Notes under the pieces: model-generated
What the model saw: only the letters and a program-made list of their open reading frames with translations
Told to the model about the DNA's origin: nothing
Databases searched by the model: none
Shown: one piece after another, positions 4,837-52,451 of the stretch
Numbering within the stretch: the stretch's first letter is position 1
Layout of the letters: each line of letters starts with the position of its first letter
Source: a virus
Strand: one strand, 5' to 3'
Length of the DNA stretch: 55,055 bases
Virus genome (UHGV): UHGV-0209657
Made by a program: the position numbers and the translations under genes

Positions 4837-4935
4837 ATCGAGTCAATCCATTTTGTATACTTTTTTAAAATATTTTATATGCTATTGATATTTAAACAAT
4901 AAATAACGTTTTCTGTTTACGTTTTGGCGTTTTCC

Positions 4936-4965
4936 AGGCAAAGAAAAGCCGCCATCCGGCGGCTA
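4936..4965 (-). terminator. rho-independent terminator after cI
   Basis: Hairpin AGCCGCC-atcc-GGCGGCT followed on minus strand by TTTTCTTTG. Confidence 0.5.
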
Positions 4966-4969
4966 ATGT

Positions 4970-5617
4970 TTATGGCAGGTTTACGATCTTCGCATCAACC
5001 ACCACGCCTATAATTTTTGATTCTGGATTCATAGGGATTGGCGGATACAGCGGATTGAGCGAACGTAAAAGCCTTTGACCTCCATCAATAATCAACTGTT
5101 TAAACGTCGGTATCTGCCCTTCCTCAAGCTGGGCTATAACCAGTTTGCCGTCAATAGCTGGCGCGTGCGGGTCAACAAGTATCATCGTCCCCGCCGGGAT
5201 GCTCAACCCCTGCGGCGCGTTCATTGATTCACCTTTGGCAACCAGCCAGTAACTATCATCTGAACAAATAACGCTAGTCGTAACGTGTGGTAATGCTGAT
5301 CGCCTTGTGTCATCCATATTGTTTACTGTGTCCTTCCAGTCAATAACCGGGTAACTACCTAAATCACGCGGCGGTGCGGCCTGAAGTGTATTAGAAACAG
5401 AATCATCAATGACCATACCATCATGTGTAACAGTGAACTGCCGACGACCAAGCGCCCGCATAATCCGCGCAATATCTTCAAGATTTGGCTCGCGGCGACC
5501 GTTCAGCCAGTGTGACAGGCCGCCTTTAGTTATCCCCATGAGATCTGCGAGTGAATCCTGACTCATGCCCTGCGCCCGCATGAGCTGCTTTGCTAAGTCA
5601 TACCATTTTGTTTTCAT
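4970..5617 (-). CDS. cI: CI-like repressor (HTH plus S24 LexA-type autopeptidase domain)
   Basis: N-terminal HTH, C-terminal GESM Ser motif and downstream Lys; divergent from rightward operon. Confidence 0.85.
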   Translation of the reverse strand: MKTKWYDLAKQLMRAQGMSQDSLADLMGITKGGLSHWLNGRREPNLEDIARIMRALGRRQFTVTHDGMVIDDSVSNTLQAAPPRDLGSYPVIDWKDTVNNMDDTRRSALPHVTTSVICSDDSYWLVAKGESMNAPQGLSIPAGTMILVDPHAPAIDGKLVIAQLEEGQIPTFKQLIIDGGQRLLRSLNPLYPPIPMNPESKIIGVVVDAKIVNLP

Positions 5618-5676
5618 GTCGCTACCCTATAACCTCAAAAAGTTTGATGCAAGTCACAAAACGTGTATTTTAAGCC

Positions 5677-5704
5677 TTGATCTTAAAATTCCATTTTGTA
5701 AACT
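5677..5704 (+). promoter_or_regulatory. candidate rightward early promoter (TTGATC - 16 nt - TAAACT)
   Basis: Sigma70-like hexamers in cI-cro intergenic region; spacer ends with CCATTTTG. Confidence 0.4.
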
Positions 5705-5741
5705 TGCAGACAAGGTAAGGCCATACTTGCAAAGACGCAAG
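5703..5741. promoter_or_regulatory. candidate repressor operators
   Basis: Inverted repeats CTTG-N4-CAAG (5703-5714) and CTTGC-N6-GCAAG (5726-5741) overlapping the promoter -10/+1. Confidence 0.35.
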
Positions 5742-5922
5742 GAAAAAGATAACTGAAGGCACAAAAAGGCACTTACCTTATGCTCTTTAAAAATCCGGTG
5801 TCGCTGCGAAGCGAAAAACAAATATCACGCAACGGCGGGATCTGTTGAGCGGTCAGTCACTGCTATCTAATGCTAATGGGATGCCCGCCCGCGCGTTCAC
5901 TCTAACCATAGGAGAAAATGCG

Positions 5923-6180
5923 ATGAGTATGAACATGATTAGTAAAGCATGGAACGTAAAACTTAATAGCCCGATTCAAAAACTTGTCTTAATGGCTCTG
6001 GCTGAAAAGGCAGATAACAAAGGACGGGTACATGATGCATCACGCAAAGAAGTAGCCGCAATGTGTGAACTTCCTGTTCATACGGTACATGATGCCTTCG
6101 CCGCGTTAATGGATAAAGGATTTGTTTGTCGTCTTGATGCATTCAGTGATGTCTATGTAGTGATGTTGCCGGAGGGATGA
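5923..6180 (+). CDS. small HTH DNA-binding protein (Cro/CII position)
   Basis: ATG at 5923 with GGAG RBS (listed start 5845 is non-ATG); helix-turn-helix-like segment; first gene of rightward operon. Confidence 0.5.
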   Translation: MSMNMISKAWNVKLNSPIQKLVLMALAEKADNKGRVHDASRKEVAAMCELPVHTVHDAFAALMDKGFVCRLDAFSDVYVVMLPEG

Positions 6181-6183
6181 TCT

Positions 6184-7230
6184 ATGAAGTGGTTTAAGCA
6201 TGACAGCGATGCGAACCGCGATGAAAAACTTCAAAACGTTTTGTTAGATTATGGCCTGGAAGGGTACGGGCTTTATTGGTATTGCCTCGAACTAATAACT
6301 TATGACGTAGATCAGCACAATCTGAATTTTGACCTACGACATGACGCGAGAATCATTGCGCGAAACGTCGGATCTACTGAAAAACGTATAGAAGAAATGA
6401 TGAAATACTTCATCGAAATTGGTTTGTTCGAATGTTCTCAAGGCCACATAACTTGCCTAAAGTTATTAAAAAGGCTGGACCAATCAATGACTTCTAAGAG
6501 CGCTTATAGGGCTGCTATAAACACAGCGAAGGAGCAATTAAAATTAGAGAAGTTAATCAATCCAACACCAAAAGGTCATGATAGGGTCATGACCGGGTCA
6601 GGAAAGGGTCATGAATTAGAAGTAGAAGAAGAAAGAGAAAAAGATATATACACTTCGTGTATTAGCGAAAATGGACAAAAAACGGTCAATCAGGATGGCG
6701 TAAACGAAGCGGCATTGCGTTGCTTGGCCTTCTACAACGACAAAGCTGGATGCAAGTGTCGTGATGCTAAGCCATTTATCGAACTACTGACAGAAACAAA
6801 AACACGTAAGGCATACACGGAGGATGAGATCACATTAGTAATCGAATGGGCTTTGACGCAATGGCGCAGCCGTGGTGGAACACCTAAGCCTATCAACATT
6901 TGCCGGGTAACTAAATTCGATGGGTATCTGGCTGACGCTGAGCAATGGCGCAAGCTATCAGCTACTGTAAACGCTGCCGACGTGGTGGAAGCATTTAACA
7001 GCACGTTTGACGGCCTGTTACCACCTGCCGAACTGGATCGGGATCTTGAACGCAAGATCTATGCGTTCACTGACTACCTGAAAGACAAAAGCATTAACGG
7101 CTTTGTCGCCTACTTCGAAACGTTCAAAAACACGGCTTCAGATTTTTACTTCGGCAATGGCTTCACTGCGACACTTGATTTCCTGCTTAAACCAAAAACG
7201 CTACGTGATACGCGCGCTGGCGCTCTTTGA
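6184..7230 (+). CDS. replication initiation / replisome organiser protein
   Basis: N-terminus MKWFKHDSDANRDEKL...GLEGYGLYWYCLE matches recalled DUF4373 replication N-domain; GGAGGG RBS; upstream of helicase. Confidence 0.7.
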   Translation: MKWFKHDSDANRDEKLQNVLLDYGLEGYGLYWYCLELITYDVDQHNLNFDLRHDARIIARNVGSTEKRIEEMMKYFIEIGLFECSQGHITCLKLLKRLDQSMTSKSAYRAAINTAKEQLKLEKLINPTPKGHDRVMTGSGKGHELEVEEEREKDIYTSCISENGQKTVNQDGVNEAALRCLAFYNDKAGCKCRDAKPFIELLTETKTRKAYTEDEITLVIEWALTQWRSRGGTPKPINICRVTKFDGYLADAEQWRKLSATVNAADVVEAFNSTFDGLLPPAELDRDLERKIYAFTDYLKDKSINGFVAYFETFKNTASDFYFGNGFTATLDFLLKPKTLRDTRAGAL

Positions 7231-7363
7231 CCAACCACGATCCGCAAAAATCCAAAATTACCCACAAAACAACCTCACCAGCGAGCTAAATCGCATGTGG
7301 TGCTACACTTGCTTACCTTTTTGCGATTAGCTCGTTAGAGAGCGTTACAGAGAGGATTTTAAA

Positions 7364-7465
7364 ATGGATAGTAAACACGTTTTCGCCCTGGCTTTCGCCA
7401 TAGCTGCGGCAATAGATGTTAACGTCGTTTTGTTCGGCGGTTTGTACCTTCTCGTTAATCCATAA
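7364..7465 (+). CDS. small hydrophobic peptide (33 aa, MDSKHVFALAFAIAAAIDVNVVLFGGLYLLVNP)
   Basis: ATG micro-ORF with GAGAGGA RBS; below ORF-track cutoff. Confidence 0.25.
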   Translation: MDSKHVFALAFAIAAAIDVNVVLFGGLYLLVNP

Positions 7466-7618
7466 CCTACCTACCAGTCTGTAAACCGAAAATTAGCCAC
7501 CTGATAGCGTCTCTGGCGCAATAAGACACTGCAACCTGTGCAAACGGGTTACGCGGTGGGATTTTTGCGTTGTAGCGCGTCTGAGGCGTTATATAGAAAA
7601 TTAATAAAGGAGGTATAT

Positions 7619-8674
7619 GTGATTGCTACTTATCATATGAAACTCAATTGTAAGGACACGCAATTACTGTCTGTTAATAATCTGGTTTCTGAACTTGAAA
7701 TTGATAGACTTAAATCATTTGTTAAATACTCTGATCTTTACGGATTTGAGGAATACAAGGATTTTATTGTTGATGGTGATGATGTGTATATCACACCCAT
7801 AACGTTTATTAGATTCGTTACACCTGGTAAATATAGACATTATGAATATAATGAAAAATGGGTTAAGCCAGTTATTGAATCTTGTGGATTAGTTGACTTG
7901 CAAGATATCTTTAATAAATATTCAAATAACACCAAAAAAGATAGTCCTTATGCTTATAATTATATTTTATGGTGTAACAATTATGTTGAAACGAGTGATA
8001 CTCCTGGGCGATGTTCTGTGTATGTGTCAAAAGAAGATGCTGAAAAGTACAAAAAATGGTTGTTCGTCACTCGCGGAGTATCAATAGAAAAGCTATGGGT
8101 AAGGTTGTTCCATTCAAGCGATATTGCAGATCCAGATGCGTTTTTAACTGAACACCTCAATAATGATGAGTTTACCATTGATTTAAATATTGAATATTTT
8201 ATAGTTAAAACAAATTATGGGTATGAAAGATATATTAGCGATAAGATAGCAGAAAAGTATCATGCATGGGGTGAAAATAAAGGTCTTAATAATAATTTTG
8301 AATGCGGGAATTATAACGACATAGAAAACTTTATTGAATTAAAAAGCGATAAAAATGTAATTGAAGAAATAAAAAAGGAGTACGACTCGAAATTATCAGA
8401 AATGAGAGATAATTGTAAAAATATGATTAGGAAGCGTTATGAACATGCTGGCTTAACTATGTATGAAAAACTAAAAGGAGTTAAATTAATAAGGCAATAT
8501 CCTGTTGATGTTGCTGGCAATAAGTATTTTATTGATGGCTACGATCCTGTGAATAACGTTGCTGTAGAAATTGATGAGTCACATCACAAACGGCAAGTAA
8601 AAAGCGATGCGATAAGACAAAAACGCATTGAAGATTATTTGGGGTGCAAGTTTTTCCGTTGTGCTATATCCTAA
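7619..8674 (+). CDS. AT-rich hypothetical protein with C-terminal DUF559/Vsr-like endonuclease-fold domain
   Basis: GTG start 5 nt after AAGGAGG; markedly lower GC than flanks; C-terminus YFIDGYD..VAVEIDESHH..D..R..LGCKFFR matches recalled DUF559 pattern. Confidence 0.5.
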   Translation: MIATYHMKLNCKDTQLLSVNNLVSELEIDRLKSFVKYSDLYGFEEYKDFIVDGDDVYITPITFIRFVTPGKYRHYEYNEKWVKPVIESCGLVDLQDIFNKYSNNTKKDSPYAYNYILWCNNYVETSDTPGRCSVYVSKEDAEKYKKWLFVTRGVSIEKLWVRLFHSSDIADPDAFLTEHLNNDEFTIDLNIEYFIVKTNYGYERYISDKIAEKYHAWGENKGLNNNFECGNYNDIENFIELKSDKNVIEEIKKEYDSKLSEMRDNCKNMIRKRYEHAGLTMYEKLKGVKLIRQYPVDVAGNKYFIDGYDPVNNVAVEIDESHHKRQVKSDAIRQKRIEDYLGCKFFRCAIS

Positions 8675-8710
8675 TGTATACAAATTGTAAACCGCAATGT
8701 ATACGATTAG
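8671..8710. repeat. palindromic element at 3' end of AT-rich gene
   Basis: CTAATGTATAC (8671-8681) and inverted GTATACGATTAG (8699-8710); AATGTATAC direct repeat. Confidence 0.4.
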
Positions 8711-8851
8711 TTATTCATTAAGTGGTTATTTCAATTTGCATAAGTTGTTGATTAACCCTACTGGCATTTTTTGACACCGTGAAATCCATGTTAATAAAAA
8801 TTAGTTATTTATGAATAAATACTCATTCCGCGAACCGGAGGTAATAACGTT

Positions 8852-9970
8852 ATGTCACAAAGAAAGATCAGCGATGAGGAACTGATCGCCGAGTACAACA
8901 AGGGGAAAACTTACAAGCAAATAGCAGAAGAATATGGAATGGCAAAACGCAACGTCGAACGCCTGGGCGCACGGTTGGCGAAACGCGGTTTAATATCCAC
9001 GCGTCGCGCGCCGGGCTTTGGCGTCAATGGTGAGTCATTGCTCGTCGATAAGGATGGCAATGTGATTATGCGCTGGATTAAAACAGCCCGTGATCGCGAT
9101 GAAATGGAAAGGCTAATGCAAGCGGCTTGCGATGCTTTCACGGAAGACATGCCACGCGCGGAGGCCGTGCCAGTGCCGGAAATTGATTTCCAAAAAAGCC
9201 TGGCCCTTTATCCGGTATTCGATCTGCATATCGGGGCGCTTGCTCATAAAGCTGAATGCGGTGAGAGCTACGACACCGGGATCGCTGAACGCGTGCTAAA
9301 TGATTTCTTTGACTACGCGGTAGGCGCAGCGCCGATGTCTGAAAAAGCTGTATTGCTTCTCGGTGGGGATGTTCTTCACACTGATGGGCTGTTGCCAGTG
9401 ACGCCATCAAGCAATCACGTACTTGATTGCGATTCACGCTACGCAAAACTTGTTTATGTGGCGATCCGGTCAGTCCGCCGTGCTGTAGGAAAGATGTTGT
9501 TAAACCACAAAGAAATCGAAATCCAGGTATTATCAGGTAATCACGATCAGTCGGGGATGATTTGGCTACGTGCTGCGCTGGCGGCTTTTTACGAAGATGA
9601 ACCGCGCGTAACGGTTGACGTGTCACCTGCTATCGTACACCACACACAGTACGGCAAAACATTCCTTGCTTACCACCACGGACACACCATCAAAAAACCA
9701 GAAAATTTGTTGTCTGCCTGCGTCTCTGACTGGCGGGAAGATTTCGGTAAGTCTGCGGCGGTTTATGCTCATTGCGGGCACTGGCACCACCAACGGTTGA
9801 TTGAATCATCGTTAGGCGTTGTTGAGTATCACGGCACGTTAGCGGGCAAAGACGCTTATTCAACGAATGGCGGCTGGCGGTCGCGGCGTCTGGCGGCGGT
9901 AATAATTTACAGTCCTGATCACGGGGAAATCGGGCGCTTTGTTTATTACCCTGAATATTCCATTTTGTAA
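8852..9970 (+). CDS. HTH-domain protein fused to calcineurin-like metallophosphoesterase (GNHD type)
   Basis: N-terminal HTH; motifs DLHIG, GGDVLHTD, GNHD, GHWHH in canonical order; ATG at 8852 with GGAGG RBS. Confidence 0.55.
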   Translation: MSQRKISDEELIAEYNKGKTYKQIAEEYGMAKRNVERLGARLAKRGLISTRRAPGFGVNGESLLVDKDGNVIMRWIKTARDRDEMERLMQAACDAFTEDMPRAEAVPVPEIDFQKSLALYPVFDLHIGALAHKAECGESYDTGIAERVLNDFFDYAVGAAPMSEKAVLLLGGDVLHTDGLLPVTPSSNHVLDCDSRYAKLVYVAIRSVRRAVGKMLLNHKEIEIQVLSGNHDQSGMIWLRAALAAFYEDEPRVTVDVSPAIVHHTQYGKTFLAYHHGHTIKKPENLLSACVSDWREDFGKSAAVYAHCGHWHHQRLIESSLGVVEYHGTLAGKDAYSTNGGWRSRRLAAVIIYSPDHGEIGRFVYYPEYSIL

Positions 9971-9988
9971 ACCGGAGGTAATGCCATA

Positions 9989-11404: not shown

Positions 11405-11483
11405 TTAACTTGAGCAAACGGCTTACCGGAAAGTTGACCGCTTTCTGGTGGCTGTTTTCGCGCTTAAAACGAGGCGAAAAACA

Positions 11484-12244: not shown

Positions 12245-12253
12245 GGGGCGATC

Positions 12254-17535: not shown

Positions 17536-17732
17536 CGCAATAACTCCGTTTTGTTAATTAACTAAACAATTCTACCATTTTGTGATCTGTGTTACACTTT
17601 GGGCTTATACATAATGTATTTTTTGATCTATATCAACATACGAAATGATAGCTTCTGCGGTGATTTGCTCATCGGATGGGTGGATCATCACGAACAACAA
17701 ATGACAGTAAAACAAACAGTAAGGTGAATACA

Positions 17733-24913: not shown

Positions 24914-25042
24914 TTTCTCACCTTGTCATTCTGTGATCTGCGTCACGCTAAATCATACCAAAATGGATTGATCGCGGTTTTTACAATATGTATATTTTAC
25001 TCAAACGGAAGCATAGTTAACAAAATGGCGCGGAGGTGCGTT

Positions 25043-25568: not shown

Positions 25569-25817
25569 ATGGGGCGGCGCAATCACGGTGATTATGTGTA
25601 CACGTTGAAACAGGCCGCCCGCCTCATCGGTTATCATGAACACGAATTTATTGATTTGCTGATTGAGCGCGGGATACTGTACCAGGTCTGTTTAACGCTG
25701 TACCCGAAAGCGAAATACCTACATGAAAAGTTATTCATCATCATGACGGATGAAAACCAGGTTAACCATTCATTCGTCACTGATAAGGGCGTTAATTATC
25801 TGCGTGATAACTTATAG
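25569..25817 (+). CDS. hypothetical protein (82 aa), possible HTH, moron cassette gene 3
   Basis: Segment YTLKQAARLIGYHEHEFIDLLIERGIL looks HTH-like. Confidence 0.35.
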   Translation: MGRRNHGDYVYTLKQAARLIGYHEHEFIDLLIERGILYQVCLTLYPKAKYLHEKLFIIMTDENQVNHSFVTDKGVNYLRDNL

Positions 25818-26524: not shown

Positions 26525-26622
26525 AAAACCCCCACAAGTTACATTTTGTATATATCTTTACGCGCTTCTACGCGAAAAATAAGATCATTGTCACAATGAT
26601 TATAGCTAGTTTACAAAATGGA

Positions 26623-26651
26623 TTCACATAGCACGCAACAAGATGTATATA
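26623..26651 (+). promoter_or_regulatory. candidate sigma70 promoter for moron cassette (TTCACA - 17 nt - TATATA)
   Basis: Hexamers with 17-nt spacer about 40 nt upstream of AAGGAGG RBS. Confidence 0.3.
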
Positions 26652-26864: not shown

Positions 26865-27119
26865 ATGAAACTGGTAGCGATTGACAGAAATCTGAAAGCA
26901 CAGAAAAACGCACAGGACCGGATCATCAAGAAAGGTAAGGAATTACTTAAAGCCTTTCTGAGAAAAGAAGTTTACCCCAAAAAGTTACGCGACGGTTACG
27001 GATACAAAATGGATATCAATCTTGATTGGAGGCTGTTTAGCGAAGATTTGAAGGTTTGGTTAATTGTTGAGCACCATGCCTATAACAAGTTATGTGGCGT
27101 GAAAGGCACTCATAAGTGA
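26865..27119 (+). CDS. hypothetical basic protein (84 aa), moron
   Basis: GGGTGAG RBS; followed by terminator. Confidence 0.35.
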   Translation: MKLVAIDRNLKAQKNAQDRIIKKGKELLKAFLRKEVYPKKLRDGYGYKMDINLDWRLFSEDLKVWLIVEHHAYNKLCGVKGTHK

Positions 27120-29548: not shown

Positions 29549-29602
29549 GATTTAACCTCATGCAAAAATGTGATCTGTGTATCTATTTTATACAAAATGG
29601 CT

Positions 29603-29631
29603 TTACTTCAACGACTCCATTTTGTATAAAG
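29603..29631 (+). promoter_or_regulatory. candidate sigma70 promoter for lipoprotein moron (TTTACT - 17 nt - TATAAA)
   Basis: Hexamers with 17-nt spacer; inverted repeat TACAAAATGG/CCATTTTGTA overlaps; CRP-like half-site at 29569. Confidence 0.4.
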
Positions 29632-29675: not shown

Positions 29676-30335
29676 ATGAAACGGTTAGCAAAAGTGGCAA
29701 TGATTGCGGCGGTATTGGGTCTGGTTGGTTGCAATGAGGATAATGAAAAAGCGCCTATAGTGACCACTCAAGAACAACAAGCATTAGCAGAGAAAAATGC
29801 TAAATGGCTTGCAGAACAACAAGCAAAACAAGCCGCATATGAGGCACAGTTAGCAAAAGAAAAAGCTGGTAAACAGTGGCTTGTGGTCGAAAGAAAAGAT
29901 GATATGCAGGACACAAAAAACGTGTTCCTTTTCGTGAAAGCAGAACATTTCAGCGGAAGTCTTGATGCTTTCCCTACACTGAAAGCACGGGATGAAAACA
30001 AACCTGTATTAACAATCGCTTGCCAGGGTAATAAAACAAAAATGTTCGTAGCATGGTCAAACCATGTAACTGACGCTGGGGACACTACTTATATTAACTA
30101 CCGGATCGGCGATCACAAAGCTGTAGCTACTGAATGGAGTCGGTCAACTAACTATAAAGCTCTTGGATTATGGAACGGCAAAAAAGCCATTCCAATGATT
30201 AAAAAACTGGTTAACGAAAAACAATTTATCATTGAAGTAGTGCCGGAAGCTGGCGACATTGAGAAAGCAGTGTTTAACATTGATGGTCTTTATAACCACA
30301 TCGACAAAGTGAAAAACGCTTGCAACTGGAATTAA
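29676..30335 (+). CDS. lipoprotein (signal peptide plus lipobox LVGC)
   Basis: MKRLAKVAMIAAVLGLVGC N-terminus; opposite strand between tape measure and tail chaperone region. Confidence 0.6.
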   Translation: MKRLAKVAMIAAVLGLVGCNEDNEKAPIVTTQEQQALAEKNAKWLAEQQAKQAAYEAQLAKEKAGKQWLVVERKDDMQDTKNVFLFVKAEHFSGSLDAFPTLKARDENKPVLTIACQGNKTKMFVAWSNHVTDAGDTTYINYRIGDHKAVATEWSRSTNYKALGLWNGKKAIPMIKKLVNEKQFIIEVVPEAGDIEKAVFNIDGLYNHIDKVKNACNWN

Positions 30336-33316: not shown

Positions 33317-33699
33317 ATCCTCCTGCTCTTACCAATCCACAGCCCGGCGTGCGCGGTGTTTTCTGGATCTGCTGGAATCAGTTCGGCTGTACAGTGATGT
33401 TTATCAATGGAGTAAAGCAACGAATAGGCCGCCTTCCATCGTTTGTTGAAATCGACATAGCGGTATGACTGACTCGCACCGTTCGGCCCAGTCTGCGAGG
33501 AAACGTATTTATCAGCCTGGCTTAGTCCTAACAGGCCAATCAGATAAAGCTGAATCAATGTTGCAGTGGAGGCCGGATAGTTGGCATCAAGGCATTCATT
33601 AACGCTATTTGCCTGCTCCACCAGCAAAGATAAGATAATGTCTGGCAGGTCAATACCCTGGCTTTCAAGATATTCCCGCGCCTGTTCTGTAGTGACCAT
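33313..33699 (-). CDS. head-tail connector protein (gp6-like)
   Basis: ATG at 33697-33699; first gene after capsid terminator. Confidence 0.4.
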   Translation of the reverse strand: MVTTEQAREYLESQGIDLPDIILSLLVEQANSVNECLDANYPASTATLIQLYLIGLLGLSQADKYVSSQTGPNGASQSYRYVDFNKRWKAAYSLLYSIDKHHCTAELIPADPENTAHAGLWIGKSRRM

Positions 33700-44798: not shown

Positions 44799-44800
44799 AG

Positions 44801-45368: not shown

Positions 45369-45371
45369 TGA

Positions 45372-45629
45372 TTATTCCCCTTCGTAAAGAATTGCCACCA
45401 GTTCGGCATCTGTTAGCGTGTTGTGATCTTTATAAGTCCCATAGCGAGCAACGAAAGCTATTTCACCAGCTATCTTCCGCCACATAGGGATTGACTCATC
45501 AAAATAGGTATTCTCCATTCCCTCCCTGTATGCCAGTTCATAAAAACGCCCACGGTTAACATCTTCAATCACGCGGCTATATGTGCCATCAATCTTACTT
45601 ACGCCGCGCCATAGTCTGAACACAACCAT
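45372..45629 (-). CDS. island ORF (85 aa)
   Basis: Co-directional packed ORF. Confidence 0.3.
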   Translation of the reverse strand: MVVFRLWRGVSKIDGTYSRVIEDVNRGRFYELAYREGMENTYFDESIPMWRKIAGEIAFVARYGTYKDHNTLTDAELVAILYEGE

Positions 45630-45631
45630 AA

Positions 45632-45931
45632 TTAAAACTCCGCACCAGATAAGCTACGCGCTTTATTCACCGCGTCATGCTTTAAACATAGGCAGGCGTG
45701 GTAGTTCATAATCCCCATATTGCCTACAGGTATTTCATTATTTTCTGCCTTTATTCTGAATAACTGGTTTTTGGTGAAGATCCTGTCACCATCAGTGATA
45801 TATAACCAGTCTCCGCGCTTACCAACAACAACATGAGATCTGCCTAAACTGTCTTTAAATTCATAATTGCAGAAAACATCACCTTTAGGCACTTCAACAA
45901 AACAGCACGCAATGAATTTATCGCTTTTCAT
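45632..45931 (-). CDS. island ORF (99 aa)
   Basis: First gene after internal promoter-like region. Confidence 0.3.
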   Translation of the reverse strand: MKSDKFIACCFVEVPKGDVFCNYEFKDSLGRSHVVVGKRGDWLYITDGDRIFTKNQLFRIKAENNEIPVGNMGIMNYHACLCLKHDAVNKARSLSGAEF

Positions 45932-45960
45932 GATTTTGCCATCCGTCTTTCAGTGGCTTA

Positions 45961-46022
45961 TATATAACAAAATGGCACTACCGAAACAATGCCATTTCGT
46001 AAACATTGTGATACAGATCACA
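45961..46022 (-). promoter_or_regulatory. candidate CRP-dependent class I promoter inside island
   Basis: Perfect TGTGA-N6-TCACA at 46007-46022; -35 TTGTTT (45984-45989) and -10 TATATA (45961-45966) on minus strand; CRP centre about 61 nt from inferred start. Confidence 0.35.
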
Positions 46023-46023
46023 T

Positions 46024-46248
46024 TTACGTTTCTTCAGTAAAAGTAACCTTCATCGCCCCATCCGAACTACGGACAACATAGCGACCAGCTCCCCGGCGCG
46101 GCTCTGCATACCATAAGTGACCGTAAGTGTCAGTAACGACGATAAACGGCAATTTAGGAGACAATCCCATCGGTTTTTCAGCCGTATACTGTGCGCCTTC
46201 TTCAAAACAGCCTAATTTCGATTCGTTACACGTTAAAATCATTTTCAT
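46024..46248 (-). CDS. island ORF (74 aa)
   Basis: Shares F..G..Y...D..W pattern with neighbours. Confidence 0.3.
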   Translation of the reverse strand: MKMILTCNESKLGCFEEGAQYTAEKPMGLSPKLPFIVVTDTYGHLWYAEPRRGAGRYVVRSSDGAMKVTFTEET

Positions 46249-46481
46249 ACCCCTACATACGAAAACGCAGCAAAAGCACCACCAGCACGCGCATAAACAA
46301 GTGCCGTGCCATACCCCATCTTATAAAATCGCCATAACTGACCCTGGTCGTCAGTAATGGCATGAATATATTCCTGATCCTTTGCGTCAACCAATGCCGC
46401 GTCAACCTCGTAGATCTTGCCATTCTTAAAAAACGCGCTGCATCGTGAGTATGTGCACTGGTATCTATGTTTCCGATTCAT
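46245..46481 (-). CDS. island ORF (78 aa)
   Basis: Putative paralogue family (FKNGKIY...LWRFY). Confidence 0.3.
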   Translation of the reverse strand: MNRKHRYQCTYSRCSAFFKNGKIYEVDAALVDAKDQEYIHAITDDQGQLWRFYKMGYGTALVYARAGGAFAAFSYVGV

Positions 46482-46491
46482 AGCACCTCAC

Positions 46492-46785
46492 TTATTCCGG
46501 TTTACTGCCTTCGCGGGCGCAAAACTCCGCGATCTCACGGAAATCATGCACTATGCGATAAATATACAAACCAGCGGCGTTATTGATATGGCTAACATAA
46601 GCGAAATAAACTTTATCATCATCGCCAGTTATCGCCATTGCACCATCACCGCCCGGTGCGCCGTGGAGTTGAACGCCGCAATAGATCTTCCCTTCTTCAA
46701 AAATATTGCGGTCGCGCGTCTGCAATACCTCAAAATATAAATGTTTCATTGTTGCCCCTTTAATAACGTTCAAAGCTGGCAGCAA
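46492..46785 (-). CDS. island ORF (97 aa)
   Basis: Putative paralogue family (FEEGKIY...VYFAY). Confidence 0.3.
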   Translation of the reverse strand: MLPALNVIKGATMKHLYFEVLQTRDRNIFEEGKIYCGVQLHGAPGGDGAMAITGDDDKVYFAYVSHINNAAGLYIYRIVHDFREIAEFCAREGSKPE

Positions 46786-46972
46786 AACCTACACCGGATA
46801 TTTCACCGCCTTCATAGCTCGGCCTGAATACCCATATTTCGTCATGATTATCAATCAAGGCAAGGCAATTACTCATTGTGTGTGCTTCATTGCCATAAAC
46901 GATGTGAACGTCATAAATACTCCCAATCGTGAAAACACTGTCATTGCTTGAGTATGAGCATTTAACTTGCAT
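46760..46972 (-). CDS. island ORF (70 aa)
   Basis: Putative paralogue family (GSIYDV...IWVF). Confidence 0.3.
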   Translation of the reverse strand: MQVKCSYSSNDSVFTIGSIYDVHIVYGNEAHTMSNCLALIDNHDEIWVFRPSYEGGEISGVGFAASFERY

Positions 46973-47217
46973 CAGAAAACCCCTTTATAATCGACCGTGT
47001 ATTTTGCTATCAGATTCCAGTCGCAGTAATTAAGCATGTCGCGAGGCTGCCAGCCTTTCATCCCGACCGCCCGCCGCGCAGCGTGACGGCGATAATCATC
47101 GTTATAGTCAGCTATGCACCACGGCTGGAGAACAAACATATAATTTGCTTCATTAACCAGGATAGCCACCCGCTTTCCTGTTGCCTTGTCTTTTGCCCTG
47201 AAATAATTCACTTTCAT
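46972..47217 (-). CDS. island ORF (81 aa)
   Basis: Packed ORF. Confidence 0.3.
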   Translation of the reverse strand: MKVNYFRAKDKATGKRVAILVNEANYMFVLQPWCIADYNDDYRRHAARRAVGMKGWQPRDMLNYCDWNLIAKYTVDYKGVF

Positions 47218-47429
47218 TTTAATACCTCGTCGATCAGCATTTCTTCTTCCAGGTTAGCCGGACGTTTACGGAATATCCCGGCAAAAACCAGGTCATCAAG
47301 TAGGTCTTTGCGTTTAAATAGCCACTCTTTCATTATTACCCCGTCATCGCTGCGATATACGACGCCGTTTTTCAAAAAATAAAAAGTGCTGGTATTTGTT
47401 TGAAGGTATAAATCTTCGTAAACGTCCAT
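47214..47429 (-). CDS. island ORF (71 aa)
   Basis: Packed ORF. Confidence 0.3.
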   Translation of the reverse strand: MDVYEDLYLQTNTSTFYFLKNGVVYRSDDGVIMKEWLFKRKDLLDDLVFAGIFRKRPANLEEEMLIDEVLK

Positions 47430-47433
47430 GATA

Positions 47434-47661
47434 TTAACCCTCGACTACTTGCAAGCCGCGCCCCTTATCGCCTACGAAGTCGCCCAGGCTAAACGTATAT
47501 GACCACGCCGGGTTAATGTAGTAATCATCAGCACCGTGAGCGATAAGGTCTTTACCCAAAATGACGCAGGTCACATCATCAGAATGAACAACGTCTACCG
47601 TTTCCCCTACCACGCGTTTTAATGATGGGTAGCCGTGATCGTGCAAGAATTTAACTTTCAT
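47434..47661 (-). CDS. island ORF (75 aa)
   Basis: Packed ORF. Confidence 0.3.
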   Translation of the reverse strand: MKVKFLHDHGYPSLKRVVGETVDVVHSDDVTCVILGKDLIAHGADDYYINPAWSYTFSLGDFVGDKGRGLQVVEG

Positions 47662-47945
47662 ATTTCTTTCCCTTTATAAGTAACAGCATCAGCGATCAAC
47701 AATACCGCCAGCAATTCACCGTCATGTAACGGGTCTGGAATAGCAAAAAATATGTCGCTGTTTTTGTCCGGCACTACTACGCGCATATTTCCCTGTTTGT
47801 CTTCATGCACGAACCACGGCTTTTCGTGTGGCTCAAACATGCCGAAAAGTAATTTAAGATCTATTTCTTCACCCTTCGTGAATAACGACACATCAGTTGT
47901 AGTGATAACTAACGCTTTCTGATCTGCTGTTTTCTTCGCTCTCAT
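47658..47945 (-). CDS. island ORF (95 aa)
   Basis: Packed ORF. Confidence 0.3.
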   Translation of the reverse strand: MRAKKTADQKALVITTTDVSLFTKGEEIDLKLLFGMFEPHEKPWFVHEDKQGNMRVVVPDKNSDIFFAIPDPLHDGELLAVLLIADAVTYKGKEI

Positions 47946-48220
47946 TCCTCTGTCTCCCAGCGGTCTATGCTGATTAAAAAGTCCCGGATAGCGTGTCGCT
48001 CGTCGCGCGTCGGTTTACGCTTCCGGTAAATCTTGAAATCAAACCATTCTTTTTCTTGTTCGAAATCCAGATCGTAAGCAAGCGCCTCGATATATCCGCA
48101 GTCGTGATACTGGTAAGCCACGCCAGCACGAACAAAAAAGCGGGTTTTATCCCGCTTGTGTTCATAGATACACATATTTGCCCCACTATGCAGTTGTGTA
48201 ACTATCAACCAGCTTTTCAT
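47942..48220 (-). CDS. island ORF (92 aa)
   Basis: Packed ORF; preferred over overlapping 47974-48186 frame. Confidence 0.3.
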   Translation of the reverse strand: MKSWLIVTQLHSGANMCIYEHKRDKTRFFVRAGVAYQYHDCGYIEALAYDLDFEQEKEWFDFKIYRKRKPTRDERHAIRDFLISIDRWETEE

Positions 48221-48416
48221 CCTTCATTCTGGAAAGCTGCATGATATTCATCGTGTAGCCGTTGTCAGAGAAAAGCCACTCCGCAGCCTTGCGACGAAAA
48301 ACAATATCATCATGGTTATGCGTCCATGTAGCGATAACCACGCGCTTTCCGTCAGTGGCAAACATTGTTAATTCATTATCAACTACGTCGATAGCCTGCC
48401 AGATTTTTAGCTCCAT
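48186..48416 (-). CDS. island ORF (76 aa)
   Basis: Packed ORF. Confidence 0.3.
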   Translation of the reverse strand: MELKIWQAIDVVDNELTMFATDGKRVVIATWTHNHDDIVFRRKAAEWLFSDNGYTMNIMQLSRMKDEKLVDSYTTA

Positions 48417-48772
48417 GATTTACCCCCGTAAATTTTGAATAATTCCCGTGCCTCCTGATCTCCAAATATCTTCATATGCAGGTCATGCAGTCGTCGCATT
48501 GTGCGGAAGCGCGGTCTAAATTCCTGACTTCGTTTAATGTATTTACCGCCAATTGAATAAATATGCCCGTATGCATACCATCTGTTTCCTACCCATATGT
48601 CATATTCTTTGCCTTCGTAATTAAATTTGATTGTTAGCTCCCCGAATTCCATTATTAACCCTTTGTCGAGGATGTCATTAAGCATTTCGTCCCATTCTTT
48701 CAGGAATGGTTGCTGATAAAAACCGAAAAGCGTATTTGCAGCGTGGCAAAGGTAATCAATGATTATTTGCAT
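48407..48772 (-). CDS. island ORF (121 aa)
   Basis: Packed ORF. Confidence 0.3.
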   Translation of the reverse strand: MQIIIDYLCHAANTLFGFYQQPFLKEWDEMLNDILDKGLIMEFGELTIKFNYEGKEYDIWVGNRWYAYGHIYSIGGKYIKRSQEFRPRFRTMRRLHDLHMKIFGDQEARELFKIYGGKSWS

Positions 48773-48776
48773 ATTA

Positions 48777-48992
48777 TCACCACATCATATAATAAACGTT
48801 ATCGTTAGCTACTTTGTCGGCTCGTTCTTGTGTTAATAGCGGCGCACTTTCCATAAAAGCATCAAAATAATGCCACTTATAAACAAGCATACGCGCCCAT
48901 TTGCGGCGCTGGCGCTTATTGTGTCGCAGATCATCAAAAGCCTTTAACGCTTTGTCATACGCCCTTACCAGGCGTTTACGGTTACTTTTCAT
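48777..48992 (-). CDS. island ORF, basic protein (71 aa)
   Basis: Packed ORF. Confidence 0.3.
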   Translation of the reverse strand: MKSNRKRLVRAYDKALKAFDDLRHNKRQRRKWARMLVYKWHYFDAFMESAPLLTQERADKVANDNVYYMMW

Positions 48993-49197
48993 TTTTCACC
49001 CTTCCTATTTCCTTGATCTCAATATTGCGCAACCGGACGTCGCACGGCGTTTCAGATTTACCAGTAAGCGCCAGCGTCAGGTTTTCAGGTGTCGTGTAAA
49101 GAATTATCTCTTTACCAGTGCTAAATTTAATTTCTATGCGGATCTCGTTTTCATCACCGCACAATACGCGGCTAATTGACAGGCCAGCTTTTTTCAT
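48982..49197 (-). CDS. island ORF (71 aa)
   Basis: Packed ORF. Confidence 0.3.
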   Translation of the reverse strand: MKKAGLSISRVLCGDENEIRIEIKFSTGKEIILYTTPENLTLALTGKSETPCDVRLRNIEIKEIGRVKNEK

Positions 49198-49210
49198 TGC
49201 TCAACAAACC

Positions 49211-49510
49211 TTAAAATCTGTATTGCCAGTAAATATCACACTTTATTGCGAATACCTTCACCGGATCAGGGCCGAATAGTGGATGTTGAATCAACTTGAT
49301 TTCGTACCCCATGTAAGGCAATACGATAATCCGGTCTTTCTCATCATCCGATGGATAACCCCATTTAATGATTAATCTTGTGTACTCCCGCCCCTCCAGG
49401 CGTTTACGCCAGTATTCATTGTAAAGCCGGTATTCTTCCACCTTCTTTCCCGCCCGGATGGCGTGGAAGTATTCACCTTTTAAATTCAAATGTAAGTGTT
49501 TATTTGCCAT
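49211..49510 (-). CDS. island ORF, ASCH/DUF3850-like (PUA-fold) protein
   Basis: LHLNLKGEYFHAIRAGKKVEEYR resembles recalled ASCH-like N-terminus. Confidence 0.35.
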   Translation of the reverse strand: MANKHLHLNLKGEYFHAIRAGKKVEEYRLYNEYWRKRLEGREYTRLIIKWGYPSDDEKDRIIVLPYMGYEIKLIQHPLFGPDPVKVFAIKCDIYWQYRF

Positions 49511-49961
49511 CGCTATGATCCTGTAAACAGTCGTTATAGCCTTCGATGTATCCGGTTAATCCGGTATTACTTACTGACCATTCAGCCGTCCGGCGCTCGA
49601 TGGCCTTATCAACCGTCATTTCGTCACCAGGCCCGCCAGGCTCAATATATTTTTTCAAATCCCTTGCTATCCACGCCAGTAATTGTTGTGTATCACCACA
49701 CAACCGCGCTGATAACGTCAGGTCATTAACAAGTTTTGCAAAAAGATGTTCTTTTAATTTAGGCTTCATTGTCGTTACCCGCCCATAAATATGAACAGGC
49801 TTAATAGGTACGGCGGGCAATTCGCCATCGTTTAATGCGCTTGCCATTCCCAATATTAAACGCGCTTCAGCACCAGTGACTTTCTTACACCATGCACCGC
49901 CTGTTTTATCCTCGAACAAGATAACAGCAAACTGATCGTTTATTTCCAGTTTATCCATCAT
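49500..49961 (-). CDS. island ORF (153 aa), first gene after Q
   Basis: Start overlaps Q stop. Confidence 0.3.
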   Translation of the reverse strand: MMDKLEINDQFAVILFEDKTGGAWCKKVTGAEARLILGMASALNDGELPAVPIKPVHIYGRVTTMKPKLKEHLFAKLVNDLTLSARLCGDTQQLLAWIARDLKKYIEPGGPGDEMTVDKAIERRTAEWSVSNTGLTGYIEGYNDCLQDHSDGK

Positions 49962-50680
49962 TCACCTCGCGTCACTCGTTTAATTTCGTTATCAGCCCGC
50001 GCCTCTTCTTTGAACAATTCAGCGATGGCGTCTTCATAGAAAACCCGGTATTTTTTCCACCATGTTGATCGGCTTACCGGAAATACAAGCTGATTAACCG
50101 CACGCCGGACAAGATCTACAGGGAAACGCGAGTACCCGCGCCCGCCGCAATGCTGGCACGTTTTGAACACTGGCATTTCCGCTGCTTCACTGGCTGCTTT
50201 ATCCGGTATCTCGCCGCGCCCTTTGCATCGTTTACAATGATTGCGAACTTTTCCATGCCCCTTGCATTTTTTGCAAAGGTGTTTTTCTCCGTAGTCGTCA
50301 AACGTAAATTTATATCCGCCGCAATCCATACAAGTTTTTTCTGTCGCGGCACTCTGGCAGTAATCCCGAAACGCGAAAACGGCAACAAGAATAATAAGAT
50401 CATTGCGTTGTTCTTCATTTAATTCCATCACGTATTCGTAATCTTTCGCCATAACCCTTAAACGCTCTGTAAGCAAAATTACAGCCCTGTGTTTTTCAGC
50501 TTGCGATAGCTCCATTTTCCCTAAAAAAGCACTATAGCCAAGCTCTACGCGCGATTGCGCCATACCAGCGGCGGTAAGCGCATCCGTCGTATTAAGTGCA
50601 TCCGGGGATGTTCCCCGGCTTTCGCCTGATAATCGCGGTGATTTGGGAAAGTGGAATTTCAGAATGGATTCTAAATTCAT
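49958..50680 (-). CDS. Q: late-gene antiterminator Q (lambda type)
   Basis: LESILKFHFPKSP, AAGMAQS, ELSQAEK, FAFRDYCQSAAT, CGGRGYSRFP match recalled lambda Q; Cys-rich zinc-binding centre. Confidence 0.85.
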   Translation of the reverse strand: MNLESILKFHFPKSPRLSGESRGTSPDALNTTDALTAAGMAQSRVELGYSAFLGKMELSQAEKHRAVILLTERLRVMAKDYEYVMELNEEQRNDLIILVAVFAFRDYCQSAATEKTCMDCGGYKFTFDDYGEKHLCKKCKGHGKVRNHCKRCKGRGEIPDKAASEAAEMPVFKTCQHCGGRGYSRFPVDLVRRAVNQLVFPVSRSTWWKKYRVFYEDAIAELFKEEARADNEIKRVTRGE

Positions 50681-50862
50681 TATTTGCCCCCATAGCGAGC
50701 AATAAGGCGTTTGCGATCAGAAATGGTTTGCACCAGTTTTCTTTCAAGCTCTTTCAGCGCAAGTAATTCCTGCATGTGAAAAGCCTGGATTCGTCTGACT
50801 GTCGCTAAATCATGCTCGTCACGTTGAACATCTATTTGCAGATCTTTAATTTCGTTTTTCAT
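50680..50862 (-). CDS. hypothetical coiled-coil protein (60 aa)
   Basis: ORF between rusA-side genes and Q. Confidence 0.3.
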   Translation of the reverse strand: MKNEIKDLQIDVQRDEHDLATVRRIQAFHMQELLALKELERKLVQTISDRKRLIARYGGK

Positions 50863-51107
50863 TTCTCTACCACCTTAAACCGAGTTTTAAAATGACCCTG
50901 CAAAAAATACTCATTTTTTGACGGGAAATACTGGACTAATCGCCATGCGTCGGCGTCGTCGAAATCAGATACAAGATCGTCTTGTAGAATGAAAGCAAAG
51001 CACCCATGCTTTATAAAACCTGAATATTTTTTACCTTCAGTGAAAAAATCGACGCTTGATTGAGTGCATTTAACAACAATGTTTATTAGCTCCATTGTCA
51101 CCCCCAC
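50859..51107 (-). CDS. hypothetical protein (82 aa)
   Basis: ORF in nin-like region. Confidence 0.3.
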   Translation of the reverse strand: MGVTMELINIVVKCTQSSVDFFTEGKKYSGFIKHGCFAFILQDDLVSDFDDADAWRLVQYFPSKNEYFLQGHFKTRFKVVEK

Positions 51108-51499
51108 ATATTCGTCGCGTATTCGTCAATATCCGGTAGCAGGTCGCCGCGTTCGCGGATCTTAATAAACAAGCGTCCGCCTTTTACCTTCCGGCAGCGG
51201 ACAATTTTTATTGAGTCAATTTGCCCGTCATCCTTCCAAAATCCGGCATAGGTAAGGCTATCAAAAAGGCATTTAGGGATATTATCCAGATCTCTGATCC
51301 GGTTATCCGGCGGCGCGGCATAGATGGCGATTGCCAGTCGGCAAGGTAGGTTAATGTTTAAATTTAATAGCTCGATGATGTCTCTTACTTGTTCCCGATA
51401 TTCCTTCCCCACTTTGCTTATATAGTGAAAACCGCGCGAATGTCGGTAATAGCGATTGTTCGATGGCGGGTAAGGCAGGCTAAAAGAATATTCATTCAT
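51098..51499 (-). CDS. rusA: RusA-family Holliday junction resolvase
   Basis: N-terminal LPYPPSNNRYY motif and size; nin-region context. Confidence 0.75.
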   Translation of the reverse strand: MNEYSFSLPYPPSNNRYYRHSRGFHYISKVGKEYREQVRDIIELLNLNINLPCRLAIAIYAAPPDNRIRDLDNIPKCLFDSLTYAGFWKDDGQIDSIKIVRCRKVKGGRLFIKIRERGDLLPDIDEYATNMWG

Positions 51500-52101
51500 G
51501 CTGCCTTTCTCCTTAAGGCGTCCAATTTCGCCTGATAGATGTTTATTAGCTCCTTACATTCTGCAATCGTCCATTTGTGAGTTTCGTTGTTGTTCTCCAG
51601 AGCTACCACCCTGGCGAGGCCAATTTTTCGAATCAGCGCCGGGCGATACCCTCCGATGTTGCCGTCTAGTGTCTGGTTGCAGTGCCTGCATTGCTTGTGA
51701 CAATTATCCTCGTTGAAGCGAAGGTGTCCGGCGGCTGCTACCGTCCTGTAATGGCCTGCATCCCACCCGCATTGCTCACCGTAGTAAGTCCCGCATGATA
51801 TGCACGGCAATCGCGCGTCACGCTCGCGTATATAAGCGTTAAAAACGTTTTGCGCCTGTTTAATCCAGTAGCTGCGCGGATTTAACTGCTTCCGCTTCCG
51901 GTTGCGTTCTTCCCGCTGGCTATCACGGTGTTTCTTTCGTTCCATAGCCTTCATAGCCTTTTCACGATCGCGGCATAGCTGATCAAACTTCAGTTCTTCC
52001 AGACATTCATCGCTGCACCACGTTTGATTGTGATATTTAGGCTCAAAAAAAACGCCGCAGCATTTGCAACGGCGTCTTATGGGTTTTTTAGGGTTCTGCA
52101 T
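51496..52101 (-). CDS. ninG: NinG/Rap-family recombination protein
   Basis: Basic N-terminus then Cys-cluster (RRRCKCCG...WCSDEC...CISCG...CRHC); ATG at 52099-52101 with GGGGTGG RBS (listed start is GTG). Confidence 0.7.
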   Translation of the reverse strand: MQNPKKPIRRRCKCCGVFFEPKYHNQTWCSDECLEELKFDQLCRDREKAMKAMERKKHRDSQREERNRKRKQLNPRSYWIKQAQNVFNAYIRERDARLPCISCGTYYGEQCGWDAGHYRTVAAAGHLRFNEDNCHKQCRHCNQTLDGNIGGYRPALIRKIGLARVVALENNNETHKWTIAECKELINIYQAKLDALRRKAA

Positions 52102-52115
52102 AAAAACCACCCCGA

Positions 52116-52292
52116 TTATTTTTGATTCTCTGTTTCGTTCAGCCTTTCGGCGTGTCCGGCCATTAGCCAATGATCTAGGCATTCGTTGCACTCGTTACAG
52201 CCTCCTTTCTTTGTGCTGCATACATTGCACATTGCACGCATGACGCTCTCTCGTTCATAGTCGTCATGCCATTGGTAATCATCAAAAGACAT
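52116..52292 (-). CDS. small Cys-rich zinc-ribbon-like protein (58 aa)
   Basis: ATG with AGGAG RBS; translation verified; CNVC..x8..CNECNEC; below ORF-track cutoff. Confidence 0.4.
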   Translation of the reverse strand: MSFDDYQWHDDYERESVMRAMCNVCSTKKGGCNECNECLDHWLMAGHAERLNETENQK

Positions 52293-52368
52293 AATGCTCT
52301 CTCCTTTTCAGGTGATTTCTACGCATTTCAGCGCTGCCGGATTTTTAAAGAGCATTTCGTTTGCTTGA

Positions 52369-52429
52369 AGTATACAAAATGGATACACCAGAACAAGGTG
52401 AATAGCGCCATTATGTGATCCACATCACG
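52369..52429 (-). promoter_or_regulatory. candidate promoter with CRP-like site upstream of nin genes
   Basis: -10 TATACT (52369-52374), -35 TTGTTC (52391-52396), TGTGA-N6-TCACg at 52414-52429, within nested inverted repeats. Confidence 0.35.
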
Positions 52430-52451
52430 CAATGGCGCCATTTTGTAAATT

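Follow-up and report, generated by a model that had tools for sequence, protein, structure and literature searches.

The virus genome UHGV-0209657, analyzed here as a single stretch of 55,055 nucleotides (the window), is the complete or near-complete 55 kb genome of a temperate coliphage of the mEp021-like (mEpimmI) group. About 24 conserved copies of a 13-bp quasi-palindrome with the core CCATTTTGTA are distributed from position 744 to 52448 in roughly ten control regions. In the reading that is favored over its alternatives, the copies belong to promoter cassettes that are spread genome-wide, silenced by a repressor and assisted by the cAMP receptor protein (CRP). The core CCATTTTGTA is probably the conserved part of the operator that is recognized by the CI-type repressor of the phage, Rep. 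The obvious candidate for binding TGTGA-N6-TCACA palindromes adjoining the copies is host CRP, an assignment for which the chances are about even. One repressor, probably together with host cAMP-CRP, may control most of the phage promoters. The wider proposition that a single CI-type repressor guards essentially every transcription unit of this lambda-sized phage by means of copied operator-pair cassettes, each with a cAMP-CRP input, is tentative.

The preliminary description of the window reported a recurring, promoter-associated motif, and both its non-random occurrence and its conservation in relatives are borne out. The 8-mer CCATTTTG has 16 copies, as compared with 3.7 ± 1.9 expected, and none of 100 shuffled sequences reached that number. 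The 10-mer CCATTTTGTA, with 10 copies against an expectation of 0.25, is the top 10-mer of the window by both frequency and over-representation. When the copies are aligned on the adjacent hexamer and the pattern is relaxed, the element becomes the 13-bp quasi-palindrome (A/T)T(C/A)CA-TTT-TGTA(T/A). In its relaxed form, (A/T)T(C/A)CA-NNN-TGTA(T/A), the arms (C/A)CA and TGTA are placed about a 3-bp center, and MCANNNTGTAW occurs 29 times where 7.8 occurrences are expected. Positions 3–13 of the 13-mer vary by 2–10% and the flanks by 10–25% (21 sites, up to 89 orthologous hits). A TAnAnn hexamer directly follows the TG at the motif copies, which agrees with the −10-like hexamers that had been reported to adjoin them, and the TGTA(T/A) arm shares the first bases of a −10 hexamer. 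Pairs of copies are 24–25.5 bp apart in six cases and 34–35 bp apart in three. Across 130 loci of the phage group the motif has a density of about 3 per 10 kb; unrelated phages, in which a distant NinG homologue is the only shared feature, have almost none.

Of the 16 exact 8-mers, twelve are conserved amid variable flanks (up to 89 orthologous hits). The exact hits at 27005 and 37591 are chance occurrences, because they are located inside coding sequence and drift in relatives. The hit at 5603 encodes K-W of the repressor N-terminus MKTKWYDL, and its conservation in relatives is due to its coding and start-codon context; the hit at 33696 is likewise a start-codon context. The site at 25021 is conserved in relatives and is not a chance hit. 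The positions listed previously were correct to within 1–6 nucleotides (4848 rather than 4842, 9960 rather than 9961, 29617 rather than 29618, and 52438 rather than 52439). The site placed at 26542 is a one-mismatch copy, ACATTTTGTAT, at 26541, and the hits at 27005, 37591, and 5603 had been overlooked.

The copies that flank the repressor gene have the arrangement of immunity operators. The predicted promoter PL, on the − strand, is near-consensus (TTGACT-17-TATATT) and lacks a CRP-like site; it is followed at 4775 by a nut-like boxA on the same strand. Its −10 and −35 hexamers are covered by OL1-like and OL2-like operators, respectively. The core of OL2 is invariant in 85 orthologous hits, and the 17-mer that contains it, ATCCATTTTGTATACTT, is identical in 17 of 17 bases to the site at 52372. 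On the + strand, the predicted promoter PR (TTGATC-16-TAAACT) is followed by the boxA of a nut site at 5782. OR1 occupies the spacer and −10 region of PR, and the OR2-like operator located upstream of it reads TCACAAAATGTAT in many relatives. The CRP/FNR-like site at 5643..5658 has its TCACA in common with OR2 and is nearly invariant in 87 hits. The PR region is homologous to PR of the classical relatives L192 and L265, which are described below. An 8-bp inverted repeat at 4809-4846, TTGACTCG ... CGAGTCAA, with arms 22 nucleotides apart, brackets the PL core; one arm is the PL −35 hexamer TTGACT and the other is located at the PL start site.

Rep is 96% identical to Rep021 of phage mEp021, with an identical helix-turn-helix (HTH) region, and its closest solved structure is that of lambda CI (3BDN, E = 1e-19). 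Overall, the window is 84–88% identical to MagusPhagus, mEp021, and related phages, and its orientation is the reverse of that of MH706966. Such phages are reportedly as common as lambdoid phages in human gut Escherichia coli (PMC11893012). The same study identified Rep021, an N-like antiterminator, a Q-like protein, and three nut sites in the group, including the position of nutR2; no promoters, operators, or motif were described there (PMC11893012). It has been shown that plasmid-expressed Rep021 blocks infection by six mEpimmI phages, with the operators of Rep021 left undefined (PMC11893012). Rep lacks the segment around the conserved VQAG(A/S)W, the LexA/CI-type cleavage region, that is present in homologues, in agreement with the published absence of ultraviolet inducibility. 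A Pfam and PHROGs scan that covered 40 window proteins detected no DNA-binding regulator candidate besides Rep, and there is no cro-like gene anywhere in the window. The gene in the cro position, 5926-6180 (+), which is the first gene of PR, does not encode Cro; its match is to replication initiators, in their N-terminal winged-helix portion (phrog_4617, E = 5.5e-22). Since Rep021 is functional and resembles lambda CI, and since neither a rival regulator nor Cro was found, Rep is the obvious candidate for binding the 13-mer.

The IMG/VR database was scanned for inverted pairs of the motif. The scan returned only mEpimmI contigs, unrelated AT-rich chance matches, and one small, unrelated contig, IMGVR_UViG_3300023280_000099 (L192), which provided the decisive lead. 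The repressor of L192 is 45% identical to Rep overall, and the HTH regions are closely similar. Three ATACA-N3-TGTAT sites are located within about 110 bp between the L192 repressor gene and an XRE-type cro gene, and two perfect copies occur at a PL-like region 2.2 kb away. Each of these sites (2440-2545 and 4741-4777 of the contig) abuts a −10-like hexamer, as in a textbook tripartite array. One of them faces the repressor gene and is PRM-like, with the hexamer TATGAT. The L192-type repressor family, which is lambdoid, has at least 600 IMG/VR hits and is 98% identical to the repressor of Enterobacter phage ENT1, 65% to HK620 cI, and 43% to P22 c2. In 49 loci of the family, sites are positioned at −87, −54, and −28 from the repressor start codon and again 0.8–2.8 kb downstream, and ATACA-N3-TGTAT-type sites occur almost nowhere else in those loci; this is the textbook layout of OR and OL. 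Tripartite arrays of this type are present between cI and cro in L192, L094-096, and L265-343, and in a more remote relative (38% identity), three GTATACA-N3-nGTnT sites separate the repressor gene from the cro-like gene. Spacings in 79 loci of classical relatives peak at 25–26 bp (102 cases) and 32–34 bp (66 cases). The record of HK620 (NC_002730) annotates OR1-3 and OL1-3 as AATAC-N5-GTATT 17-mers, 22–25 bp apart. Because homologous repressors carry homologous OR and OL sites, the motif is best assigned to the operator type of this repressor family. The earlier view of the motif as a generic promoter element gives way, by homology, to that of an operator for a CI-like repressor.

Outside the immunity region, most copies belong to dispersed cassettes with predicted promoters (Table 1). 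Hexamers of the −35 type were sought 16–18 bp from each candidate −10, and starts were placed by rule 7 nucleotides after the −10 hexamer, which gives an error of ± 1–2 bp on distances to CRP-like sites. A −35 hexamer of the form TTGnnn or TTnACn is present in eight orientations, one per cassette, and none was found for the opposite orientations 4848+, 24959−, 26612−, 29591−, 45992+, and 52438+. In all eight predicted promoters, which are of the sigma-70 type, an operator is centered near −16, and another lies 25 bp away, near −41, or 34–35 bp away, near −51. Conservation in relatives extends to the −35 hexamers, to the operators together with their −10 hexamers, and to the palindrome half-sites, and the sequence in between varies. 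A reading in which each exact copy is a promoter that faces the gene downstream of it was dropped, since only one orientation per cassette has a −35 hexamer. Several exact copies point away from the real promoter, and the copy at 4848 covers the −35 hexamer of PL. For the same lack of a −35 hexamer, many exact 10-mers that seem to face tail genes, such as the 29590-29602 copy facing the tape-measure gene, are better read as −41 operators of a divergent promoter. A generic sigma-70 scan did not pick up the motif copies.

The operators of P52373 form an OR-like triple array directly upstream of the third nut site. The boxA of this nut site, GCTCTTTAAAAATCCGG, starts at 52353 and runs down the − strand, about 10 nucleotides past the predicted start at about 52362, so that a nut boxA follows PL, PR, and P52373 alike. 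The proximity of boxA to its own predicted start, together with a −10/operator 17-mer identical to that of OL2, suggests that the third nut site is part of a third immediate-early operon and not a mid-operon nut site. A long inverted repeat at 52404-52437, GCGCCATT...AATGGCGC, encloses the CRP-like palindrome of this cassette. The homologous stretch of mEp021 is annotated as the predicted terminator TERM_4; no T-run follows the repeat in the window.

Table 1 Repressor gene, candidate operators, predicted promoters, and CRP-like sites in the window. Promoters are given as −35 hexamer, spacer length, and −10 hexamer; centers of CRP-like sites are relative to rule-placed starts.
Feature	Position	Strand	Sequence	Remarks
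Rep gene	4970..5617	-		CI-type repressor; proposed to bind the motif
OL1-like operator	4821..4833	-	TTACGGGGCGTAT	Weak; overlaps PL −10 (TATATT, 4823..4818)
OL2-like operator	4846..4858	+	ATCCATTTTGTAT	25 bp from OL1, over PL −35; previously listed as 4842-4854
CRP/FNR-like site	5643..5658	.	TTTGATGCAAGTCACA	Centered −60.5 from predicted PR start
OR2-like operator	5654..5666	+	TCACAAAACGTGT	About −51 of PR, 35 bp upstream of OR1
OR1-like operator	5689..5701	+	TTCCATTTTGTAA	In PR spacer/−10
P745		-	TTGTGA-16-TAAACC	
P745 cassette	744..801	-		Operators 744-756 (-), 768-780 (+), 24 bp apart
P745 CRP-like site	786-801		TGTGATCGCAATCACG	Centered −59.5
P24991		+	TTGATC-17-TATATT	Predicted to drive island with KilAC-like gene
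P24991 cassette operators	24932..25030			24955-24968 (-, ATCCATTTTGGTAT), 24981-24993 (+), 25018-25030 (-, about +21)
P24991 CRP-like site	24932-24947		TGTGATCTGCGTCACG	Centered −63.5
P26646		+	TTCACA-17-TATATA	Predicted to drive ParE-like island
P26646 cassette	26580..26651	+		Operators 26611-26623 (-), 26636-26648 (+), 25 bp apart
P26646 CRP-like half-site	26580-26595			Centered −70.5
P29617		+	TTTACT-17-TATAAA	Predicted to drive VasI-like gene
P29617 cassette	29569..29630			Operators 29590-29602 (-), 29615-29627 (+), 25 bp apart
P29617 CRP-like half-site	29569-29584		TGTGATCTGTGTATCT	Centered −60.5
P45966		-	TTGTTT-17-TATATA	
P45966 cassette	45961..46022			Operators 45965-45977 (-), 45990-46002 (+), 25 bp apart
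P45966 CRP-like site	46007-46022		TGTGATACAGATCACA	Best site; centered −60.5; 18/22 to consensus
P52373		-	TTGTTC-16-TATACT	Directly upstream of third nut site, ninG, and Q
P52373 cassette operators	52340..52448			52372-52384 (-), 52406-52418 (+), 52436-52448 (+); about −16, −50, −80
P52373 CRP-like site	52414-52429		TGTGATCCACATCACG	Centered −59.5; overlaps middle operator
Operator, cassette of unclear polarity	17573-17585		TACCATTTTGTGA	Overlaps CRP-like TGTGATCTGTGTTACA at 17581-17596
Perfect-arm palindrome	17607-17619		ATACATAATGTAT	34 bp from 17573-17585 operator; cassette 17573..17619
Single conserved site	4167..4179	.	TTACATTTTGTAT	End of N-like gene; invariant in 88 orthologous hits
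Single site	7472..7484	+	TACCAGTCTGTAA	Intergenic, before 7538-8674 gene; mostly conserved
Single site	9958..9970	+	TTCCATTTTGTAA	Spans stop codon of 8852-9970 gene; abuts helicase ribosome-binding site

The window contains seven TGTGA-N6-TCACA sites with at most one mismatch, where 1.7 ± 1.3 are expected and one of 300 simulations reached seven. Six of the seven are located within 25 bp of a motif copy, and the half-sites at 29569 and 26580 likewise adjoin operators. The density of the sites is 1.41 per 10 kb in the phage group, as compared with 0.19 in classical relatives and 0.32 in unrelated phages. Among the palindromes that had been listed before, those at 17581, 24932, 46007, and 52414 have no more than one mismatch and that at 29569 is only a half-site, whereas those at 786 and 5643 had been missed. 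The resemblance to CRP sites holds: 13–18 positions match the 22-bp CRP consensus, with the maximum at 46007, and the half-sites are kept in relatives while the six-base spacer varies freely. The distance of about 60 nucleotides from the start, previously proposed for two of the sites, is reproduced at seven promoters, where the palindromes are centered at −59.5 to −63.5 or at −70.5 from starts that were predicted, not mapped. Class I sites are centered near −61.5, −71.5, and so forth, and the positions here would correspond to class I geometry within the error of the rule-placed starts. For the opposite orientation the palindrome is located at +2.5 to +13.5, and hence the copies that point away from the real promoter have it at about +3 to +13, and positions in this range are not activating. 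At PR, P52373, and the 17573 cassette, the palindrome has its TGTGA or TCACA in common with an operator arm, and therefore two proteins would compete for these sites. A phage regulator had been considered as a possible binder of the palindrome; the evidence places the phage regulator on the motif instead.

In the proposed mechanism, cooperatively bound dimers of Rep would occlude the −10 and −35 hexamers and silence the eight promoters in the prophage. When Rep is absent, cAMP-CRP would stimulate the promoters with a site at about −60 or −70. At PR and P52373 Rep would also exclude CRP, because the upstream operator overlaps the CRP site. The palindrome over the start region could block any transcription in the opposite direction within a cassette.

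Several observations weigh against the operator reading and its CRP component. The element is asymmetric: positions 1–2 of the left arm are variable, and this arm is mostly CCA where the right arm leads one to expect ACA. The central T-tract is conserved like the arms, which is odd for a spacer that is not contacted. The innermost arm positions of OL1 deviate (G/C, not A/T), and OR consists of two sites only, with OR2 weak in the window. The HK620 operators are taken from annotation, and the N-terminal domain of the HK620 repressor is more distant than overall identity implies. One half is weak in three of the CRP-like sites. Control of the accessory islands by a repressor would be surprising, since such genes are usually expected to be active in the lysogen. 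The promoters that had been regarded as coupling moron expression would be under repressor control if the model is right, which fits poorly with genes expressed from a prophage. Finally, the binding of Rep, the binding of CRP, and all transcription starts are what we infer from the observed sequences, spacings, conservation, and homology. These caveats hold confidence in the operator reading to somewhat better than even and that in CRP to about even.

A different phage regulator, such as a small early protein, might bind the motif as an activator or shut-off factor of middle and accessory promoters, with the binding of Rep confined to PL and PR and possibly directed at different sequences there, for example the ACTTGCA repeats close to PR. 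Many small proteins of the window are uncharacterized and most have no known function, the element is asymmetric, and the absence of a −35 hexamer at several copies would fit dependence on an activator. ACTTGCA-like repeats do occur just downstream of PR; however, relatives, too, carry ACTTGC in the region of the PR start, and there it falls on the −35 hexamer of a downstream promoter. The motif is found where OL and OR are normally placed, both in the window and in relatives whose repressors are homologous, the pair spacings match those of the relatives, and a second protein would have to share the sites of Rep. No candidate for such a protein was detected by the domain scan, and this explanation is improbable. 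Somewhat less probable still is that the motif is a cis element for host RNA polymerase, a module of a T-tract and a TG extended −10-like element that replaces the −35 hexamer, so that its repetition reflects one strong promoter design reused in the absence of a dedicated repressor. Extended −10 promoters of the galP2 type look similar to the motif, TG directly precedes a TAnAnn hexamer at every copy, and the copies at 24959 and 45966 have canonical TGn spacing. In all other copies, however, the TG is at −14/−13 and not at −15/−14 as in an extended −10 element, and the last two hexamer positions, 5 and 6 (−8 and −7), show about 15% variation among orthologues. Nor does a polymerase element account for the exact inverted copies over the −35 hexamers of PL, P24991, and P26646, which have no −35 of their own, for the CCA at −20 to −18, where polymerase has no known contact, or for the partly palindromic arms and fixed spacings of 25 and 34 bp. 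Moreover, classical relatives have the element only at OR and OL and not at other promoters.

The identity of the palindrome binder is less settled than that of the motif binder, and sites for a phage protein, or RNA hairpins or terminators, form an unlikely but substantial alternative to CRP sites. The site density is specific to this phage group, an extended TGTGATC and often TCACG are common to the sites, and three of the palindromes overlap operator arms. The 52404-52437 segment forms a long hairpin whose counterpart in MH706966 is TERM_4 (t4, a predicted terminator, in mEp021), and for one orientation the palindromes are located at +3 to +13. On the other side stands the match of 13–18 of 22 positions to the CRP consensus, of which the lac site matches about 15, and TGTGATCT is an ideal CRP half-site. 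Free spacers and kept half-sites do not fit a hairpin stem, and the hairpin lacks a T-run. Relative to the predicted starts, seven sites are at class I distances, and phage T1 provides a precedent for direct control of several promoters by cAMP-CRP (PMC6737242). By far the least probable explanation is that the repeats have no regulatory role and are scars or junctions of accessory cassette insertion, or hot spots of recombination where mosaic segments meet. In its favor, several cassettes lie beside accessory islands that end in bidirectional terminators, and the flanks are highly mosaic among relatives. Nevertheless, copies occur at PL, at PR, and before the third nut site, away from the islands; they are under base-level purifying selection amid variable flanks, and they keep fixed distances to the −35, −10, and CRP-like sites.

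Other candidates were discarded. Upon inspection, the sigma-32 elements CTTGAAA/CCCCAT fit only with the wrong spacing, sigma-S would require C at −13, and sigma-28, sigma-54, and sigma-E do not match. No gene for a phage RNA polymerase or phage sigma factor was found in the window. A Q-binding element with a sigma-dependent pause was rejected, since a second −10-like element is present at some sites only, and control by Q is implausible for PL, PR, and the other nut-linked promoter. Boxes for IHF, Fis, OmpR, TyrR, PurR, Fur, and LexA do not fit consistently, and a mini open reading frame from ACAAAATGG is not conserved across the sites.

Three of the predicted promoters are associated with islands that are encoded on the opposite strand within the tail-gene block and have bidirectional terminators on their borders. 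The islands, all on the + strand, encode a KilAC-domain fragment (25569-25817), a ParE-like toxin domain protein (26865-27119), and a protein similar to VasI of type VI secretion (29676-30335). A perfect 17-bp palindrome, ATCATTGTGACAATGAT, is located at 26583-26599 between the 26611 operator and the start of a minor-tail gene, and only its TTGTGA core is kept in relatives. In 46024-49961 (−), with the Q-like gene on one side and the P45966 cassette on the other, there are about 17 successive small open reading frames (60–150 residues); each one that was scanned either lacks a family match entirely or has no known function. The single sites at 4167, 7472, 9958, and 25018, which have no obvious promoter, could, speculatively, be roadblocks. 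The copy at 9958 is kept in relatives even where a gene for an HNH endonuclease replaces the helicase gene downstream.

If the repressor-silenced, CRP-assisted cassettes are real, they supply the operator sequence of Rep021 and a transcription map with eight repressor-guarded promoters, and the third nut site is explained by a third repressor-controlled early promoter. They would also explain why mEpimmI is a single immunity group despite accounting for about half of the isolates. An immunity module that depends on about two dozen scattered operators could not be swapped as a cassette, which suggests a mechanistic reason for the immunity of the group being evolutionarily frozen. Prophage expression and the lytic program are predicted to respond to carbon status through CRP. 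With its CI-type repressor and Gram-negative host, the phage would parallel the immunity systems of P1 and mycobacteriophage L5, in which operators are dispersed.

The system resembles the OL and OR operators of lambdoid phages (lambda, HK620, and the ENT1/L265 type) in having a quasi-palindrome with ATAC/GTAT-type arms, adjacent copies about 25 or 33 bp apart (about 2.3–3.3 helical turns), overlap with the −10 and −35 hexamers of the predicted PL and PR promoters that flank the repressor gene, and a homologous repressor with HTH and S24 domains. Unlike those phages, which have 5–6 copies in two regions, it has about 24 copies in about ten regions over 55 kb. Furthermore, the left arm is reduced to CCA, no cro gene was found in the window, the repressor lacks the autocleavage segment, and CRP-like sites, which are absent from classical relatives, are attached. 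The C1 repressor of phage P1 has many dispersed operators that overlap the promoters of many separate operons; its operator, a 17-mer, is asymmetric, and C1 does not belong to the CI/LexA type. P1 thus also has genome-wide operators over promoters, but with another type of repressor, another site symmetry, and another mechanism.

The CRP-like palindromes, about 60 or 70 bp upstream of the predicted starts of promoters with a weak −35 hexamer, resemble those of lac-type class I promoters. In phage T1, the pir promoter is a direct target of cAMP-CRP, which has effects on the dam and recE promoters as well (PMC6737242). However, CRP represses in T1, whereas activation is predicted here from geometry alone, and unlike in T1 and lac the sites are embedded in repressor-operator cassettes and partly overlap operators. 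Next to P1, the nearest parallel in logic is found in the stoperators of cluster A mycobacteriophages (L5 gp71, Bxb1, TipsytheTRex), which likewise combine one immunity repressor with many genome-wide sites, mostly in short intergenic gaps (PMC9283540). A stoperator is reported to be an asymmetric site at which a monomeric, two-domain repressor stops elongating polymerase (PMC9283540). In contrast to such sites, which are oriented with transcription inside transcribed regions, the repressor of the window is CI-type and presumably dimeric, its partly symmetric sites are paired over promoter −10 and −35 hexamers, and a roadblock role is possible only for the four single sites. The parts of the system, CI-type operators and class I CRP sites, are known, and their arrangement appears to be new as far as could be checked.

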